Shown piece by piece: positions 13,877-57,253 of a stretch of DNA of 64,000 nucleotides. Source of the stretch: Candidatus Shapirobacteria bacterium. GTDB lineage: Bacteria; Patescibacteriota; Microgenomatia; UBA12405. The stretch covers positions 14,249 through 78,248 of the forward strand of contig JACPHO010000001.1 of the NCBI GenBank assembly GCA_016188545.1, read 5' to 3'. How positions within the stretch are numbered: the first letter of the stretch is position 1; each line of letters opens with the position of its first letter. Under the pieces are notes generated by a model. The model saw only the letters and a program-made list of their open reading frames with translations, made no database searches and had not been told where the DNA came from. Both the position numbers and the translations under genes were made by a program.

Positions 13877-14438
13877 TTCTAGTTAATAGTTTTGTATATT
13901 TTTCACTATCGATTTCAATTCCTTTCTCATTTCTGTGAAATATTTCTCTATACGCCAATCCTGCCCACAGAATTTGCTTACGTATCTGTTTTGATTGAGC
14001 ATCAACGTTTTTTGCCCCCATCACTAACTCGTTGGCATATTCTAATTTATCTATGGCTTCATTGCCAGACTCAACTGCCAACCCTCTCTCACCTTTTTCT
14101 GTCAACTTTTGGAATTCAGCAATTTTTTTATCTGCCATAAGTACCGCCAACTTTACCTTATTTTCCCCTCCACTAAGAGTCATCCATACATAATCTCTCA
14201 CTTTTTTGAAACCATAGAACACATGATTTGGTAGCATTCCTGCATCAGGGAGTTTATATGTTCCCGAAACAGTTTCTCCATCTTCAAAATTTACCAGAAA
14301 CTTTACTTCTTCGTTTCGTAACGAGTCCATCTCTCCATCTTGAGCCATTAGGTTTAGTCCAGCCTTAGCAACTGACACAAAAAGTATAACTAAACCAATC
14401 AAGACGACAAAAACCCTACCTATTATCTTCATCAGCAT
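13824..14438 (-). CDS. hypothetical N-terminally anchored protein
   Basis: 204 aa; N-terminal TM; overlaps upstream and downstream genes (likely translationally coupled). Confidence 0.4.
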   Translation of the reverse strand: MLMKIIGRVFVVLIGLVILFVSVAKAGLNLMAQDGEMDSLRNEEVKFLVNFEDGETVSGTYKLPDAGMLPNHVFYGFKKVRDYVWMTLSGGENKVKLAVLMADKKIAEFQKLTEKGERGLAVESGNEAIDKLEYANELVMGAKNVDAQSKQIRKQILWAGLAYREIFHRNEKGIEIDSEKYTKLLTRIDGWNKQQEKNRYTWNY

Positions 14439-29994: not shown

Positions 29995-30066
29995 CCAGCA
30001 GGAGCCGGGCGGTTAGGCAATGGTCTGTAAAACCATCATAAGTAGGTTCAACTCCTACCTGCTGGA
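29995..30066 (+). tRNA. tRNA-Tyr (GUA), class I (short variable arm)
   Basis: acceptor ccagcag/ctgctgg; anticodon stem atggt/accat with loop CUGUAAA (the Tyr loop); T-arm gtagg-TTCAACT-cctac; discriminator A; 5-nt variable region. Confidence 0.55.
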
Positions 30067-30112
30067 CAAGACACTGGAGTATACTAATTGGATTAATGAT
30101 TAAACATAATCC

Positions 30113-36923: not shown

Positions 36924-38501
36924 TGTACTAAGAGTTTGATCGTGGCTCAGGGTAAACGCTGGCGATGTGCCTAAGACATGCAAGTCGAACGGGATTTGTA
37001 GTCTACACGAAGACATTGATAACTTCTTAACTTTTTTTAAGTCTTTCCACTTTTGGAATATTTTTTTGAACTTTGATAAGAATCGATTATTGTAATCATT
37101 TCGATGTTTTCGTGTAGATTATAGATTCAGTGGCGAACGGGTGAGTAATGAGTACGAACGTACTCTCAAGCGGAACATAGCCCACCGAAAGGTGGGGTAA
37201 TTTTCCATAGTCTCGAAAGAGTAAAGACGCAAGTCACTTGAGAAGCGGCGTACTTGCCACCAGCTAGTTGGTAGGGTAACGGCCTACCAAGGCTATAACG
37301 GCTAACGGCTCTTAGCGGAGAGTCCGTCACAATGGGACTGAGACACGGCCCATACTTCTACGGAAGGCAGCAGTTAGGAATCTTGCACAATGGACGAAAG
37401 TCTGATGCAGCGACATCGCGTGAAGGATGAAGGCTCTCGGGTCGTAAACTTCTTTTATTTTGCCATGAAGGCATTTTGAATCAGCAACTACTAACTACGT
37501 GCCAGCAGTCGCGGTAATACGTAGGTTGCAAGCGTTACCCGGTTTTATTGGGCGTAAAGCGTCTGTAGGTGGTTTTATAAGTCTTATTTCAAAGACTCCG
37601 GCTCAACCGGAGATAGGGGTAGGATACTGTAAGACTAGAGTGATATCGGGGTTACTGGAATTTTTAGTGTAGGGGTAAAATCCGTGGATACTAAAAAGAA
37701 CACCAAGCGCGAAGGCGGGTAACTAGGTATTTACTGACACTCAGAGACGAAAGCTAGGGTAGCCAATCAGATTAGAGACCTGAGTAGTCCTAGCCGTAAA
37801 CTATGTATGTTAATTCTCTGCAATTTATTGTGGGGGATGTAAGCTAACGCGTTAAACATACCGCCTGGGGAGTATAGCCGCAAGGCCGAAACTCAAACGA
37901 ATTGGCGGGGAGGCGCACAACCAGTGGAGCATGTGGTTCAATTCGATACAAAGCGATGAACCTTACCTGGGTTTGACATTTATCTGCAAACCCCCAGAAA
38001 CGGGGGAATCCTTAGAGGGTGATAAACAGCTGTTGCATGGCTGTCGTCAGCTCGTGACGTGAGTTGTTCTCTTAAGTGAGGTAACGAGCGCAACCCCCAT
38101 CCGGTGTTATTGTGTCACCGGAGACTGCCTAGCATTATTTTGTTAGGAGGAAGGAGGGGACGACGTCAAGTCAGCATGATGCTTATGTCCAGGGCTACAC
38201 ACATCCTACAATGGGGAGGACAATGGGTCGCGAAACCGCGAGGTGGAGCCAATCCCACAAACCTTTCCTCAGTTGGGATTGCAGGCTGAAACTCGCCTGC
38301 ATGAACCCGGAATTGGTAGTAATCGCGCATCAGCAGCGCGCGGTGAATACGTTCTCGCCTCTTGCACACACTGCCCGTCAAATCAACAAAGTTGGGGGTA
38401 CCCGAAGCTTGGCCTTTGGCCGAATCAAGGTAAATCCAGCGATGAGGGTTAAGTCGTAACAAGGTATCTGTACTGGAAGGTGCAGATGGATCACCTCCTT
38501 T
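36924..38501 (+). rRNA. rrs: 16S ribosomal RNA, divergent (CPR-like), with ~100-nt AT-rich expansion in helix 6/V1 (~36995-37118)
   Basis: AGAGTTTGATCGTGGCTCAG at the 5' end; GTGCCAGCAGTCGCGGTAATAC (515 site with C>T); ATTAGAGACCTGAGTAGTCC; CTGCCCGTCA; AAGTCGTAACAAGGTA; GGATCACCTCCTT at the 3' end. Confidence 0.9.
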
Positions 38502-45355: not shown

Positions 45356-47206
45356 ATGCACTTCATTTGTCGATCTTTTCTGGGCCATACCGAAGAAAAC
45401 TCATGGTCCCAATATTGGGAGAATGAACCAGATGATCGACAGTTGGTTTTAGAGAAAGGACACTTATTTGCCCTAGTAAATATTGTTTCTGATCAAGATA
45501 GCTCAACTAGTGACCTGGGACACCGGCTTATTGAAGAGATTAATGGACAATATTTTTCTTCAACTGGTACCACGATACCTATCTCACTGAAAAGTACAGT
45601 CGAATCGGTAGTCGCCAGTACCCAAAACGAATTGGTCGACATCTCCCTCACAGTAGCTATAGTTCACCGTTCTCAGCTATATATTGCCATGTACAATTCC
45701 GGCTATGGGTTTTTAGTTAGGGGTAAAAGTATTTCAAAAGTAATTAGTGGTAAAACCGGTGAAGTAACCATGATCTCTGGTAAGGTGCTATCAAACGATT
45801 TGCTGTTTGTTTGCACATCAGGTTTTTATGACAATCTATCTCCAGAAAAGTTAAAATCGTTTTTATCTTATTCGACAATTCAGGAAATCGAAGAAAGCTT
45901 TTTATCTGAACTTTACACCCTTTCGCAACAACACACTCTTGCCGGACTTCTGATAGGAGTTTACGAAGAAGACCAACGTCTTCCCCTAATGTCCGAGCCA
46001 AAATCAGTTCCCAGAGAAATACACGAGGTAGAAACAGTTACACTTCCTTCCGAAGAAGTGTCAGCTCCCGGACAACCATCTGTTTATATTACATCTCATG
46101 ATTCATCAGGAATCAAAAAACGTCGCCGGTTAAATATAGCTATTGGGTTAATTATCCTGATTGCCTTATCCATCAGTATTTTTTTTGGTTCAAAACGCAA
46201 CCAAGAAGCCAAAATAGAGTCAGAATATCAGTCACTCAAAACTCAGTATCTCGCCAAAATCGACAACGCCAAAGCCGTTAAAAACATCAATCTAACCGAG
46301 TCCCAAAATCTCGCCAAAAACGCCAAAGACATCGCATCCAAGATGCATGATCTAAAAATTCATGAGGAAGAAGTAAAGCAACTAATTGCATCTACTGATG
46401 AAATTCTTTCTCAAACTGGCTCAGCTGATAGTTACCAGCCACAACGTTTTTACGACACTACTCTTATAAACTCAGAAGCTCAGTATTCTCAACTTATCAT
46501 CCAAAAGAATAACCTTTTCCTCTTAGACACATCCAACGGTCATGTAGACAAGCTCGACGTTTCCTCTAAGAGCCAACAAAAAATCGTCTACAATGATGCT
46601 CTCAAAAACACAATAAGCTTCAGTGAAAACAACGGTCAATTATATTTTCTTACCGACAAAAAGATCCAATCTTTTAATGGTGTCTCGCTTACGTCTGTAC
46701 TTACCATTACTGATGGTGTCAAAGATTTTGAGTGGGGCAAGATCGCCATGTGGAATGGAAGTCTGTATTTAATGGGTAAAACTCCTACCTCAACCAGCAT
46801 TTGGAAATACACCCCCTCGGGGAATTCCTTTGGTTCAGTCACAGAATGGGTCAAAAAACCCTCCGAGTTTCCCTCTAACGCCTCCTTCTTTGCTATCAAC
46901 GGCCAGGTCTGGGTTATTACCAAAGATGGCAGCATAGTTCCATATAATCGTGGTGAAAAAGGCCAGTTTAAGTCCCAAATTACTAGCAGCCTCTCAGCTG
47001 CTAACAACTTAGTTACTGCACTCAGCTCCGAAACTCTGGCTTTTACCGAAAAAGACAACTTCGTCTATGTCTATCGTAAGGACGGTTCTACTGCCTCGAG
47101 TTACAACTTTGGTGATCGTCATGTTCTTAGTATTGCTCTTGACTCTACTGCTAATCGATTATTCGTGCTCTGTGGTGATAAAAAAATCTATCAAATTAAG
47201 TTATGA
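45356..47206 (+). CDS. large hypothetical protein (N-terminal cytoplasmic domain, single TM, coiled coil, C-terminal beta-rich domain)
   Basis: 616 aa; TM around LIILIALSISIFF. Confidence 0.4.
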   Translation: MHFICRSFLGHTEENSWSQYWENEPDDRQLVLEKGHLFALVNIVSDQDSSTSDLGHRLIEEINGQYFSSTGTTIPISLKSTVESVVASTQNELVDISLTVAIVHRSQLYIAMYNSGYGFLVRGKSISKVISGKTGEVTMISGKVLSNDLLFVCTSGFYDNLSPEKLKSFLSYSTIQEIEESFLSELYTLSQQHTLAGLLIGVYEEDQRLPLMSEPKSVPREIHEVETVTLPSEEVSAPGQPSVYITSHDSSGIKKRRRLNIAIGLIILIALSISIFFGSKRNQEAKIESEYQSLKTQYLAKIDNAKAVKNINLTESQNLAKNAKDIASKMHDLKIHEEEVKQLIASTDEILSQTGSADSYQPQRFYDTTLINSEAQYSQLIIQKNNLFLLDTSNGHVDKLDVSSKSQQKIVYNDALKNTISFSENNGQLYFLTDKKIQSFNGVSLTSVLTITDGVKDFEWGKIAMWNGSLYLMGKTPTSTSIWKYTPSGNSFGSVTEWVKKPSEFPSNASFFAINGQVWVITKDGSIVPYNRGEKGQFKSQITSSLSAANNLVTALSSETLAFTEKDNFVYVYRKDGSTASSYNFGDRHVLSIALDSTANRLFVLCGDKKIYQIKL

Positions 47207-47263: not shown

Positions 47264-47668
47264 ATGAAATTCTTCAATCGAGACTCCTTAGACTACGAAT
47301 TCAAAGACACTTTCGTTGCCGGTCTCGTCCTTACTGGTTCAGATGCCAAATCACTGCGCACTCAAGGTGTCCAATTCAACGGATCAAAAATAGAGATAAT
47401 TAACGGCATACCCACTGTCTTTAACCTTACTATTGAACCCTATAAGTTTGCCCAGTCACAGGAAGTCGATAAAACCAAGGAGCGTAAAATACTCCTTTCA
47501 AGTAAAGAAATAGCCAAGCTCCAAAGTCTTCGTAATCAAAAATATATGATCATCCCTGTCAGTATTTTTCTCAAACACAACTGGTTCAAGATGGAAATCG
47601 GCGTCGGCCGCAAGCTCCGCAAGTTTGAAAAAAGGGACAAACTCAAGAAAAAAGAACAAATGATATAA
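47264..47668 (+). CDS. smpB: SsrA-binding protein SmpB
   Basis: 134 aa; AGLVLTG.D.KSLR, ERKILL..KEI.KL, NWFKMEIGVGRKLRKFEKRD match SmpB throughout. Confidence 0.8.
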   Translation: MKFFNRDSLDYEFKDTFVAGLVLTGSDAKSLRTQGVQFNGSKIEIINGIPTVFNLTIEPYKFAQSQEVDKTKERKILLSSKEIAKLQSLRNQKYMIIPVSIFLKHNWFKMEIGVGRKLRKFEKRDKLKKKEQMI

Positions 47669-47674
47669 TAGGCT

Positions 47675-47908
47675 ATGGCTAACAAAAACACCCAAGGCTC
47701 AATTGAATTAGTACTGCCGAAAGATACCGTAGAGGCAATCAAAGCTTATGCAGAATTTGTTCAACCAAGAATTACATTCGAACAAGCCGTTTCACACTTT
47801 ATTAGTGTTGGTATGGACGTTGAATTGTTAGTCAGAAGCACTCCGGGAATTACTCTCGATACTAGATATGCAAAGAAGGTTTCTGCTACCAAAAAAGGTA
47901 AAAAATAG
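47675..47908 (+). CDS. small hypothetical protein
   Basis: 77-aa ORF. Confidence 0.3.
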   Translation: MANKNTQGSIELVLPKDTVEAIKAYAEFVQPRITFEQAVSHFISVGMDVELLVRSTPGITLDTRYAKKVSATKKGKK

Positions 47909-47910
47909 TT

Positions 47911-48156
47911 TTATTCTTCAAAATGTTTCTTGGCAAATGCAATTCCTGATCCGGTTTTTAAATATTTCTCAAACTTAAAAGCAACCTCTTTATTTCTAAA
48001 ACAATGATATTGCCACAAAATCACTGGCAATCTTGATTTGGTATTTTTTACGTTACCATCCGTATGTTCCTTAAATCTATTTTTAAGGTTATCTGTACAC
48101 CCTACATAAAAACCATTATCCGCACACTTTAAAACATATACGATTTGCGCCACCAC
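47911..48156 (-). CDS. GIY-YIG nuclease domain protein (small stand-alone), second copy
   Basis: 81 aa; IVYVLKC..NGFYVGCTDNLKNRFKEH. Confidence 0.7.
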   Translation of the reverse strand: MVAQIVYVLKCADNGFYVGCTDNLKNRFKEHTDGNVKNTKSRLPVILWQYHCFRNKEVAFKFEKYLKTGSGIAFAKKHFEE

Positions 48157-48199
48157 AAAATAATACGCTAGTTTTATAGAAAGTAAAATATATTACAAG

Positions 48200-48700
48200 A
48201 AAAATATAAAGGAGGACTTTGTCACTCCGAAGCTCCCCAAAGGGGAGCGAAGGAGGAGATGCCAGGTATTGAGCCCGGGTCCGAAAGTGGACAATAAAAA
48301 ACTTCTACAAGCTTAATTAATTTTACTTGCCAGTCCGTAGCTCAAAGAGCGAAGGATGGTCCGTCAGTCAATGGAAATTAACAAACCATTGTTGACTGTC
48401 GATTATTGAGGGCATTACCCCTCGCTTGTTACCTACCAAAATCGAGATTGATAGACCAGCATTCTTGTTTAATTTACACCGACTAACCTCCTCAAGAATA
48501 GGGGATTAACCGATGGTCAGCTCAATTATGCTTGCGCGTAGTTGAGATCAGCTTTTGAAGTACCCAAACCGAAGCCTGAGAAATCTAGAGCTAAATTGAC
48601 ACCGAAGTTTTTAGCTTTGGCATGTTTTTGTTTGACCCTGTTTTATCCGTTTTACAACAGATCCGGCTCGGCCGGACGACTCAATGGATCAAAGTCGGCT
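48200..48700. ncRNA. candidate structured RNA in a 617-nt ORF-free gap (tmRNA or RNase P RNA-like; strand and ends unresolved)
   Basis: GC-rich hairpins (ctcccc-aaa-ggggag; gagggcattacccctc); plus strand: ACAGATCCGGCT resembles RNase P CR-IV and can pair with GAGCC[C]GGGTC 385 nt upstream (P4-like), GCCAGGTA shared with M1 RNA; minus strand: GGGGTAATGCCCTCAATAATCGACAG resembles a tmRNA 5' end; adjacent to smpB. Confidence 0.2.
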
Positions 48701-48773
48701 TGCGGTTTTTTAAGGTACTCACTCCGTCGATGCAATACATCTCCGAGTCTAGAACAGGAAAATTATACCATAT

Positions 48774-49334
48774 CTATCGTAGCTTTTCAATAATCTGCTT
48801 CCAACTTTCAAAAACTTTGATATTACTTAAGTCTCCCTTGCCTGCCCGCCTTTGGAGGGTCAAGGGAGATTTAGAGGGATTGAAATACCACACGCTCATT
48901 TTTGGATAGTTTTTAGCTAGCTCTACTACAGTCGGCCAGTTATCATCAATATGAATATCCGACCCTACCTTTCCCACGTTTTGCACTTTACTCTTCACCC
49001 CCCCAATCTCTCTATCATCAAAAAAGTACCCATCATACAAGTCAAAGTAACCCCACCTCTTCATCCATTCATAAGTAATCGCCCTAACATAACCTTTTCT
49101 ACTGGTTACCAACATCACCTCAAAACCCATCGCCTTTAGTTTTTTCAATCCCGCCTGGCTACCCTCAATTGGCCTTCTCCACCGCTGGTTAACCTGTCTC
49201 CACCACAAGTCGATAAGTTTTAATATTTTTGGCATTTGACCACTCTCGACTTTCTTCTGTTGTGTCCAATCTCTTCCCCACAGCTTTTCAATAATCACAC
49301 CATCAAAATCAACCGACACAATTCTTTGTTTCAT
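48774..49334 (-). CDS. HAD-superfamily hydrolase (5'-nucleotidase-like)
   Basis: 186 aa; N-terminal DFDGVI motif. Confidence 0.5.
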   Translation of the reverse strand: MKQRIVSVDFDGVIIEKLWGRDWTQQKKVESGQMPKILKLIDLWWRQVNQRWRRPIEGSQAGLKKLKAMGFEVMLVTSRKGYVRAITYEWMKRWGYFDLYDGYFFDDREIGGVKSKVQNVGKVGSDIHIDDNWPTVVELAKNYPKMSVWYFNPSKSPLTLQRRAGKGDLSNIKVFESWKQIIEKLR

Positions 49335-56018: not shown

Positions 56019-56083
56019 TATATTTTGCAAACTACATATTTATTAGGTAACATATTACCAAGTGTTAAGAAGATGCTAATCCA

Positions 56084-57253
56084 TTGGCAACCGAGCTCAG
56101 CCACGGTGCCCTCAATAACACGCCTTTAATAATTAACAAAGGAAAAATGAATTATCCTCAGTTCTCTTCCGAATCTGTCTGTGAAGGTCATCCCGATAAA
56201 GTTTGCGATCAAATCGCCGATGCCATTCTCGATGCCGCTTATACCATTGACCCCAAAGCTCGTGTAGCCTCTGAGGTTTTGGCAACAGCCAATAAATTAG
56301 TTCTGGCTGGTGAAATCACTGTAAACGGTGAACTAGACTTCGAAGCCATTGCTCGCAAAAAGATTGCAGAGTTAGATTATCTAGATCCTGTTCTGCAGTT
56401 CACTGACAAATCAGACATTGAGGTATTTATCCACAAACAATCACCAGACATCGCTCAAGGTGTCGATGCTGGTGGTGCAGGTGATCAGGGAATGATGTTT
56501 GGTTATGCCTGCAAAGAGACTCCTGAACTAATGCCCCTGCCTATTTCTATGTCTCACAGTCTGGCTAGAAAAATGGATGAATTGCAACGTATTCACCGCT
56601 GGTTACGTCCCGACGGTAAGTCACAAGTAACTGTCAGGTACGATGGTCAAACACCTTCCGTTATCGAACAAGTAGTGCTTGCCAAACCAATAAATTATGC
56701 AGCTGCTCCCCAAGATTATGCGCATTTCTTTTATGAGAATGTAGTTGTACCGGTCTTATCGGAATACGGATTTTCCGTTACCGAAGGTAAAATGATCCTA
56801 AACGGCACTGGTAAGTGGGAAATCGGTGGACCATTCTCAGACACTGGCGTAACCAATCGAAAAATTGTCGTCGACACTTTTGGAGGTATGGGAAGAATCG
56901 GTGGGGGTGGATTATCCGGTAAAGATACCACCAAAGTTGATCGCAGTGGGGTTTACGCTGCCCGTTATTTAGCCAAAAATGTAGTCGCTGCTGGTCTTGC
57001 TGATCGCTGCGAAGTCCAGTTAGCTTATGCCATCGGACAAGTCCAACCTGTCGGTAAAGCCATCGAAACATTTGGTACTGCCCGTTCCGAACAAAAAGTA
57101 ATTGAAGATTTCGCCTGGCAACTCCTCGACCTTTCTGTTGCTGGTATCAATGAAGGACTTTCTCTCCGTGTACCTATTTACCAAAAAACTGCTCGTTATG
57201 GACACTTTGGCAACAAAGATTATCCTTGGGAAAAGATTATCGCATCTCAATAA
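56084..57253 (+). CDS. metK: S-adenosylmethionine synthetase
   Basis: 389 aa; GHPDKVCDQIADAILDA, GAGDQG, GGGGLSGKD. Confidence 0.9.
   Translation: MATELSHGALNNTPLIINKGKMNYPQFSSESVCEGHPDKVCDQIADAILDAAYTIDPKARVASEVLATANKLVLAGEITVNGELDFEAIARKKIAELDYLDPVLQFTDKSDIEVFIHKQSPDIAQGVDAGGAGDQGMMFGYACKETPELMPLPISMSHSLARKMDELQRIHRWLRPDGKSQVTVRYDGQTPSVIEQVVLAKPINYAAAPQDYAHFFYENVVVPVLSEYGFSVTEGKMILNGTGKWEIGGPFSDTGVTNRKIVVDTFGGMGRIGGGGLSGKDTTKVDRSGVYAARYLAKNVVAAGLADRCEVQLAYAIGQVQPVGKAIETFGTARSEQKVIEDFAWQLLDLSVAGINEGLSLRVPIYQKTARYGHFGNKDYPWEKIIASQ

Follow-up and report, generated by a model that had tools for sequence, protein, structure and literature searches.

We analysed a 64,000-nucleotide (nt) stretch of Candidatus Shapirobacteria DNA (GenBank assembly GCA_016188545.1, contig JACPHO010000001.1, forward-strand positions 14,249 to 78,248), called the window below and numbered from its first base. 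Its minus strand carries, from 48744 to 48251, an RNA gene that is convergent with the plus-strand gene smpB (47264-47668) and directly followed at its 3′ end by a small minus-strand GIY-YIG gene (47911-48156). By homology, architecture and genomic context, all read from sequence, this gene is ssrA and encodes a one-piece transfer-messenger RNA (tmRNA). ssrA occurs in nearly every bacterium, and the locus is ordinary in kind. The acceptor stem of this copy has A3-U70 and U73, and A3-U70 is shared by almost all of the relatives that we recovered. The RNA is a tmRNA by homology and structure, but it is a variant rather than a canonical alanine-type member of the family.

Identification of the RNA

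A search of the whole window with all Rfam families gave one match at the locus, to RF00023 (tmRNA), on the minus strand from 48744 to 48251. It scored 67.2 bits against a gathering score of 47, with an E value of 5e-24, and spanned model positions 1-374 of 374. An initial annotation, made from the sequence, had pointed to an unannotated structured RNA at 48157-48773 and had considered a minus-strand tmRNA beside smpB among its identities; the structured RNA and its identity as tmRNA are borne out by the full-length match, by covariation in 26 sequences (see below) and by a predicted fold that beats 100 of 100 shuffles (z = -3.06). The region was also correctly described as free of credible open reading frames (ORFs), as it holds only two antisense ORFs of 83 and 95 amino acids (aa), both without a Pfam hit, and as unusually large for an intergenic gap. 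On a crude gene map the gap that contains it is the second largest in the window after the 16S rRNA gap, the median gap being 19 nt. GC-rich hairpins are present as noted (the lineage-specific loop inserts of pseudoknots 1 and 4, the T arm and the putative terminator), but the GC content of the RNA is only mildly raised, at 0.437 compared with 0.404 for the window.

In a covariance-model scan of 47600-48900 on both strands, tmRNA was above threshold and no RNase P, 6S, signal recognition particle, group I intron or group II intron model gave a match at E ≤ 10. The other matches at this cut-off were sub-threshold chance hits (mir-BART2, Bacilli-1 and two small nucleolar RNAs). The motifs from which an RNase P RNA, or another structured RNA, had been proposed on the plus strand do exist: ACAGATCCGGCT at 48657-48668, likened to CR-IV; its suggested P4 partner GAGCCCGGGTC at 48271-48281; and GCCAGGTA at 48261-48268. 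The first of these is the antisense of the two-hairpin insert in pseudoknot 1, and the other two are the antisense of the T arm. A 10-bp P4-like pairing can be drawn between ACAGATCCGGCT and GAGCCCGGGTC, but it is not conserved; the arm at 48660-48669 sits in an insert that most relatives are without. Bacterial RNase P RNA (RF00010/RF00011) was ruled out on these grounds, and a minus-strand tmRNA accounts for every segment, which leaves a plus-strand structured RNA of this or any other kind with next to no probability. On the minus strand, the segment GGGGTAATGCCCTCAATAATCGACAG (48421-48396) had been taken for a tmRNA 5′ end, GGGGUAAUGCCC...AAUCGACAG. This placement was mistaken: the segment is internal, at tmRNA positions 324-349, and GGGGUAAUGCCCUCAAUAAUCGACAG combines the invariant hairpin with the 3′ strand of pseudoknot 3. 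The 5′ end proper, GGAGAUGUAUUGCAUCGACGG, lies at 48744.

The adjacent GIY-YIG gene had prompted the idea of an RNA gene split by an intron that carries a homing endonuclease, and tmRNA T-loops invaded by group I introns are known from other phyla (PMC11915505). The tmRNA of the window, however, is colinear with model positions 1-374, its T arm is contiguous (48262-48278) with an uninterrupted T-loop, and no group I (Intron_gpI) or group II model matched. An intron-form tmRNA was therefore ruled out at this locus. The GIY-YIG gene lies outside the RNA, approximately 95 nt past the tmRNA 3′ end. Its 81-aa product is not an intron endonuclease but a stand-alone UPF0213-like domain that scores 20 bits with the intron-endonuclease model, for which the cut-off is 56. 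We give the split-gene interpretation a negligible chance.

The acceptor stem lacks the alanine mark

The acceptor stem pairs the 5′ strand GGAGAUG (48738-48744) with the 3′ strand CAUCUCC (48255-48261) and is 100% paired. The third pair, 3:70, is A-U; the discriminator base 73 is U (48254), and the tail that follows is CCU (48251-48253) rather than CCA. In canonical tmRNA a third-pair G·U together with A73 makes alanyl-tRNA synthetase (AlaRS) the loading enzyme, and reviews describe the pair as 'conserved in all ssrA sequences', 'completely conserved' and 'invariant' (PMC3968760; PMC3985003; PMC1168896). Neither part of this alanine identity set is present in the window copy. No shift of the acceptor register brings a G·U back to the third pair; one step further out, the pair is C·U or U·U/U·G.

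Relatives (loci designated by L numbers) were gathered by several routes. A genome scan with SmpB led to three related loci, and a metagenome scan with an internal tmRNA motif, independent of the acceptor stem, led to 30 more. Further loci came from exact-protein look-ups of SmpBs at 70-72% identity, among them that of Shapirobacteria GW2011_GWE1_38_10. In a second SmpB search the best 120 matches listed were all Shapirobacteria-like, and the survey of A3-U70 is confined to this range. Homologous RNAs adjoin or lie near smpB in more than 30 loci from Shapirobacteria and other Microgenomates. Rfam detects tmRNA in most of the relative loci scanned, with 62-113 bits, and the remaining loci were read directly.

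A3-U70 is present in 30 of the 31 distinct full-length copies, all from Shapirobacteria with SmpB proteins 61-100% identical to that of the window. Five 3′-truncated copies have the same 3′ acceptor strand as the A3 copies. The 5′ strand GGAGAUG is identical in 25 of 26 aligned sequences, L016 alone having G3, and there is essentially no variation in the seven acceptor pairs, in contrast to the T stem and the pseudoknots, which covary freely. Base 73 is U in 17 and G in 11 of the 28 distinct A3 copies listed, and never A or C; it is also U or G in the five truncated copies and in L049. C74 is encoded in all copies, the full CCA only in L012, L018 and L041. The discriminator flips among close relatives (U in the window and G in L001; U in L010 and G in L029; U in L021 and G in L030), and it is never C, though U to C is the easier change.

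The single exception, L016, has both G3·U70 and A73. Its neighbouring ORFs match the ORF order and sizes of the clade, and in a neighbour-joining tree of the RNA, for which a root was assumed, it falls inside the A3 group with weak support (77 of 200 bootstraps).

The same change has been engineered in Escherichia coli, where the ssrA G3A allele is impaired in alanine charging and is used as a non-chargeable, non-delivered form (bioRxiv 10.64898/2026.04.23.720132). Both have A3-U70 where the alanine identity resides; the E. coli allele has lost function, with impaired charging and delivery to the ribosome, whereas A3-U70 is here the fixed and conserved wild-type state of a whole lineage. A literature search for natural A3-U70 or non-alanine tmRNAs found no report, although specialists may have noticed such cases informally. 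The 2025 tmRNA database paper is silent on A3-U70; the database itself very likely contains sequences of this clade.

Conserved structure and anatomy of the tmRNA

A consensus structure was obtained with RNAalifold, to which four pseudoknot stems were added by hand, from an alignment of 26 distinct sequences. It comprises 108 pairs in 16 helices, 96.7% of which are paired across the alignment, and 58 pairs show compensatory changes. All 500 shuffles fell short of the observed value on every measure, and with the partners displaced by 1-3 columns the pairing fell to 39-51%. The helices follow the tmRNA order, with helix H2 joining the tRNA-like domain to the ring of pseudoknots 1 to 4. Because A3 is fixed in 30 copies whose helices have undergone compensatory changes and whose tag frames and smpB genes are intact, we conclude that the whole tmRNA, including its coding part, is under purifying selection.

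The gene as aligned (48251-48744, minus strand, as are all elements of this section) is 494 nt long. A sigma-70-type promoter at 48762-48790, consisting of TTGAAA, a 17-nt spacer and a TG-extended TATAAT, matches the consensus at 11 of 12 positions and probably drives its transcription. It lies approximately 11 nt upstream of the mature 5′ end, and a TATAAT of similar kind precedes ssrA in relatives such as L016. Judging from how far the first acceptor base lies from the -10 element, the transcript would begin with a short 5′ leader (48745-48755), presumably cut off by RNase P. At the other end, the mature RNA probably terminates with the U at 48254 plus an added or repaired CCA. The trailer (48199-48250) reads as a hairpin GCUCCCC-UUU-GGGGAGC, a second element GGAGUGAC-AAA-GUCCUCC and a U-rich run. 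It is likely to be the terminator, although a simple terminator scan made no call at 48199-48250.

Within the tRNA-like domain, the T arm (48262-48278) has the stem CCGGG/CCUGG, 100% paired with covariation in three of its five pairs, and a non-canonical T-loop, CUCAAUA. H2 is formed by a 5′ strand at 48698-48725 and a 3′ strand at 48284-48312. In pseudoknot 1 (48633-48697), stem S1 pairs 48697-48692 with 48682-48677 and S2 pairs 48691-48686 with 48638-48633. Its loop 3 carries an insert of approximately 31 nt (48675-48645) with two hairpins, CCGGC/GCCGG and AUCUGU/ACGGAU. These hairpins are kept with compensatory changes, and with different sequences, in L012, L018, L024, L026 and L049. The insert is patchy over the clade (alignment columns 69-105; about 10775-10815 in L049).

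Pseudoknot 2 (48461-48515) has compensatory changes in 12 of 15 S1 pairs and six of seven S2 pairs. In pseudoknot 3 (48399-48456) all nine S1 pairs show such changes, while S2 (UCGAUU/AAUCGA) is invariant, as is the hairpin GAGGG-GUAAUG-CCCUC (48423-48408) held within it. Pseudoknot 4 (48316-48398) has compensatory changes in all eight S2 pairs, and a hairpin insert of approximately 41 nt in its loop 3 (about 48364-48324). L003 has this insert as well, with compensatory changes, and L024 has it in part. The two loop 3 inserts, in pseudoknots 1 and 4, make the RNA unusually long (494 nt); they may be ancestral with losses or may have been gained repeatedly.

The tag frame (48526-48621) starts with GCC at 48621, a resume codon that falls in the same alignment position as that of the Rfam consensus, and runs for 31 codons, coding for AKAKNFGVNLALDFSGFGLGTSKADLNYAQA, to a UAA at 48528-48526. 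The 22 loci translated (19 distinct sequences) all have an open frame in this register, 28-35 codons long and closed by TAA, with C-termini that include ALA, AYA and AQA. The program ARAGORN, when given a version of the window copy with its tRNA-like domain canonicalized in silico, returned the identical tag peptide. Tags that end in cysteine (..LAVC, ..AYNC, ..EYAC, ..MATC, ..ALC, ..ATNC) were seen among L003, L010, L011, L018, L024, L026, L027 and L029; compared with the usual Ala-rich ..LAA or ..ALA ends, they hint at a different protease-recognition motif.

Compared with canonical one-piece tmRNA (RF00023; E. coli 10Sa RNA), the window copy has the same tRNA-like domain, H2, pseudoknot 1, GCN-resumed tag frame, pseudoknots 2-4 and smpB partner, in the same order of elements and with a covariance-model match over the full length. 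It differs in having A3-U70 and U73 (U or G in the clade) where the canonical form has G3·U70 and A73, in its unencoded CCA and its T-loop CUCAAUA, in a long tag of 31 residues (many clade tags ending in Cys), and in being approximately 120 nt longer through the hairpin inserts in loop 3 of pseudoknots 1 and 4.

Loading of the tmRNA

The proposed sequence of events is that of trans-translation. ssrA would be transcribed on the minus strand from its strong sigma-70-type promoter to give a one-piece tmRNA of approximately 490 nt, with the tRNA-like domain, H2, four pseudoknots and the 31-codon frame. Together with SmpB it would enter ribosomes stalled on broken mRNAs and accept the nascent chain; the ribosome would switch to the tag frame at GCC, and the protein, tagged with ...AKAKNFGVNLALDFSGFGLGTSKADLNYAQA, would be released for proteolysis. 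Expression, processing and rescue activity of the RNA are all inferred.

With high confidence, as far as a sequence can tell, we read the gene as a functional tmRNA gene with a non-canonical acceptor identity, a judgement that extends to no single route of loading. Several observations weigh against it. Neither the window nor any of 50 loci yields a tmRNA with ARAGORN, which calls the window copy only once G3, ACCA and a canonical T-loop have all been restored together in silico. The T-loop CUCAAUA departs from the canonical UUCRANY, and CCA is not encoded in the window copy (UCCU). As for the loading enzyme, tRNA scans of 490,680 nt of loci found neither the tRNA-Ala nor the tRNA-Ser of the lineage, and tblastn searches of the same 490,680 nt with E. 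coli AlaRS and seryl-tRNA synthetase (SerRS) found neither enzyme. This hunt also took in the window-end extensions L038-L040 and Pfam scans of 37 window ORFs. Microgenomatia genomes are listed with three tRNA-Ala and four to five tRNA-Ser each (Patescibacteria tRNA paper supplement).

A gene that has decayed, or an RNA that cannot be charged and serves only as a regulator or SmpB sponge, would also look non-canonical: the change is that of the E. coli loss-of-function mutant, the T-loop is aberrant and CCA is left unencoded. This is nevertheless a very improbable account of a state that is fixed in 30 distinct full-length copies, with 58 compensatory pair changes and with tag frames and the adjoining smpB intact. 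A working tmRNA requires aminoacylation, so the loading rule in this lineage must differ from the textbook one; with A-U at 3:70 and U or G at 73 across the clade, the G3·U70/A73 signal for AlaRS is absent. On indirect arguments, the readings in which AlaRS has adapted and in which another synthetase has taken over are roughly balanced.

Alanine may have been kept if the AlaRS of the lineage is altered, or if it uses SmpB or other features of tmRNA, and accepts A3-U70, a reading to which we would give somewhat less than even chances. It is the most parsimonious one given all known tmRNAs, and the stem is a single transition away from canonical GGGGAUG. Bilaterian mitochondria, whose alanine system has abandoned the G·U pair, offer a precedent (PMC9976931), though theirs is a co-evolution of an organellar AlaRS with its tRNA-Ala, whereas here the loss of the pair is known for tmRNA only. 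The lineage has, besides, already rewired its tyrosine identity (archaeal-type tRNA-Tyr; PMC5370408). Under continued alanine loading, however, A73 would be expected to be retained or to drift freely. Instead, all A3 copies in which base 73 was read have U or G there, and A is confined to the G3 copy. Tolerance of A3-U70 by AlaRS would carry a risk of mischarging other tRNAs with that pair, and in E. coli the G3A tmRNA goes uncharged (bioRxiv 10.64898/2026.04.23.720132).

Alternatively, and with a slightly lower probability, SerRS, which does not depend on the anticodon, may recognize the acceptor stem by its likeness to that of tRNA-Ser, with H2 taking the place of the long variable arm. E. 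coli tRNA-Ser(CGA) has the same first five pairs (G1-C72, G2-C71, A3-U70, G4-C69, A5-U68); its sequence (GGAGAGA/UCUCUCC followed by G73) was verified at 100% in E. coli genomes, where it is annotated as tRNA-Ser. We take the serine identity set also to include A-U or U-A at 3:70 and purine-pyrimidine pairs at 4:69 and 5:68, and the window stem appears to fit. Bacterial tRNA-Ser has conserved G1-C72 and G2-C71 pairs, G73 contributes moderately to its identity and the anticodon is not needed for its recognition (PMC9976931); H2 projects like a long variable arm (PMC3968760; PMC3985003). G73 occurs in 11 of the 28 distinct A3 copies (approximately 40% of the clade), while none of them has A73, the discriminator that long-arm tRNAs for Leu and Tyr carry. 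A73 is found in L016 alone, together with the only G3·U70, and this looks like a coupled change of identity. That all seven acceptor pairs are frozen is as expected where several pairs are read. A switch of tmRNA from alanine to histidine has been made (Nameki et al., 1999, cited in PMC3985003), and it demonstrates that trans-translation is not strictly alanine-dependent, although this was an in vitro construct and not a natural lineage. On the other hand, 17 of the 28 distinct A3 copies, the window copy included, have U73 and not G73, and the comparison is with tRNA-Ser of E. coli, not with that of the lineage. The tmRNA has neither a true variable arm nor a D arm, SmpB on the tRNA-like domain might clash with the coiled-coil arm of SerRS, and a natural non-alanine tmRNA is without precedent. 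Loading by some synthetase that is neither AlaRS nor SerRS we consider unlikely. Overall, a natural tmRNA whose identity has switched away from alanine, most likely to serine, is a possibility that falls a little short of probable. L016 would then have switched back (A3 to G, U/G73 to A) or never have switched.

For approximately 25 years the G3·U70 pair has been called invariant in tmRNA, as the reason why AlaRS alone acts on it, and G3A has been the standard 'dead' control of the field. The same state is here fixed in a widespread environmental lineage under purifying selection. Either the AlaRS of these bacteria follows new rules of recognition, or trans-translation here begins with an amino acid other than alanine; both outcomes bear on the evolution of tRNA identity rules. 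If the identity has indeed switched, this would be the first non-alanine tmRNA in nature, and in the case of serine, Ser would be the first residue added to rescued proteins. Gene finders are affected as well, with ARAGORN missing the entire clade.

Neighbouring genes

Both flanking genes had been correctly named in the initial annotation. smpB gives a Pfam SmpB match with an E value of 1.4e-29, and its product matches the NCBIfam SmpB models with E values of 2.6e-30 and 1.1e-27, below their equivalog cut-offs. An identical protein (P0001) bears the name SsrA-binding protein, Candidatus Shapirobacteria. The distance from smpB to ssrA is 0.6 kb in the window and approximately 0.1-5 kb in relatives.

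A protein of 480-616 aa without a Pfam hit is always encoded before smpB (45356-47206, plus strand, in the window; 8509-10020 in L041, 8509-10017 in L044 and 8553-10004 in L047). In relatives its gene overlaps the smpB start, and a DUF5657 gene precedes it. The gene is a conserved and probably co-transcribed neighbour of smpB. The interval between smpB and the GIY-YIG gene holds a 77-aa ORF (47675-47908, plus strand) that matches no family; its one homologue is in L002 (42% identity).

The GIY-YIG protein gives a Pfam GIY-YIG match with an E value of 1.6e-12 and matches the UPF0213 structure PDB 1zg2 with an E value of 9e-7. Homologues with 36-68% protein identity lie on the same strand directly 3′ of ssrA in 11 further loci: L002 (8744-8980), L011 (1154-1348), L014, L017 (2815-3051), L026 (5581-5802), L028 (1536-1763), L034, L035, L041 (10460-10678), L042 and L043. 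No GIY-YIG gene follows ssrA in L044, by gene call and sequence, or in L047, by sequence. The gene may be a conserved companion of ssrA that has been lost repeatedly, or else an element directed at the ssrA 3′ flank.

Other features of the window

A tRNA-Tyr gene at 29995-30067 (plus strand) is 73 nt long, with C1-G72 and a short variable region. It is of the archaeal/eukaryotic type and not the bacterial type with a long arm and G1-C72; by this token the lineage has rewired at least one tRNA identity other than that of its tmRNA. Archaeal-type tRNA-Tyr has already been described for bacteria of the candidate phyla radiation, including Shapirobacteria (Mukai et al., 2017, PMC5370408).

In the 16S rRNA gene (36924-38501, plus strand), 116 nt are inserted close to the 5′ end, at about model position 80. 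Neither tRNAs nor a 23S gene follow the 16S gene, and a RecF/SMC_N-like gene lies upstream. In relatives a prenyltransferase gene lies downstream of the 16S gene, and L041 and L044 have the same arrangement. An S-adenosylmethionine synthetase gene is directly preceded by a SAM-I/IV riboswitch at 56057-56158 (plus strand), which scores 45.3 bits (threshold 41.1).

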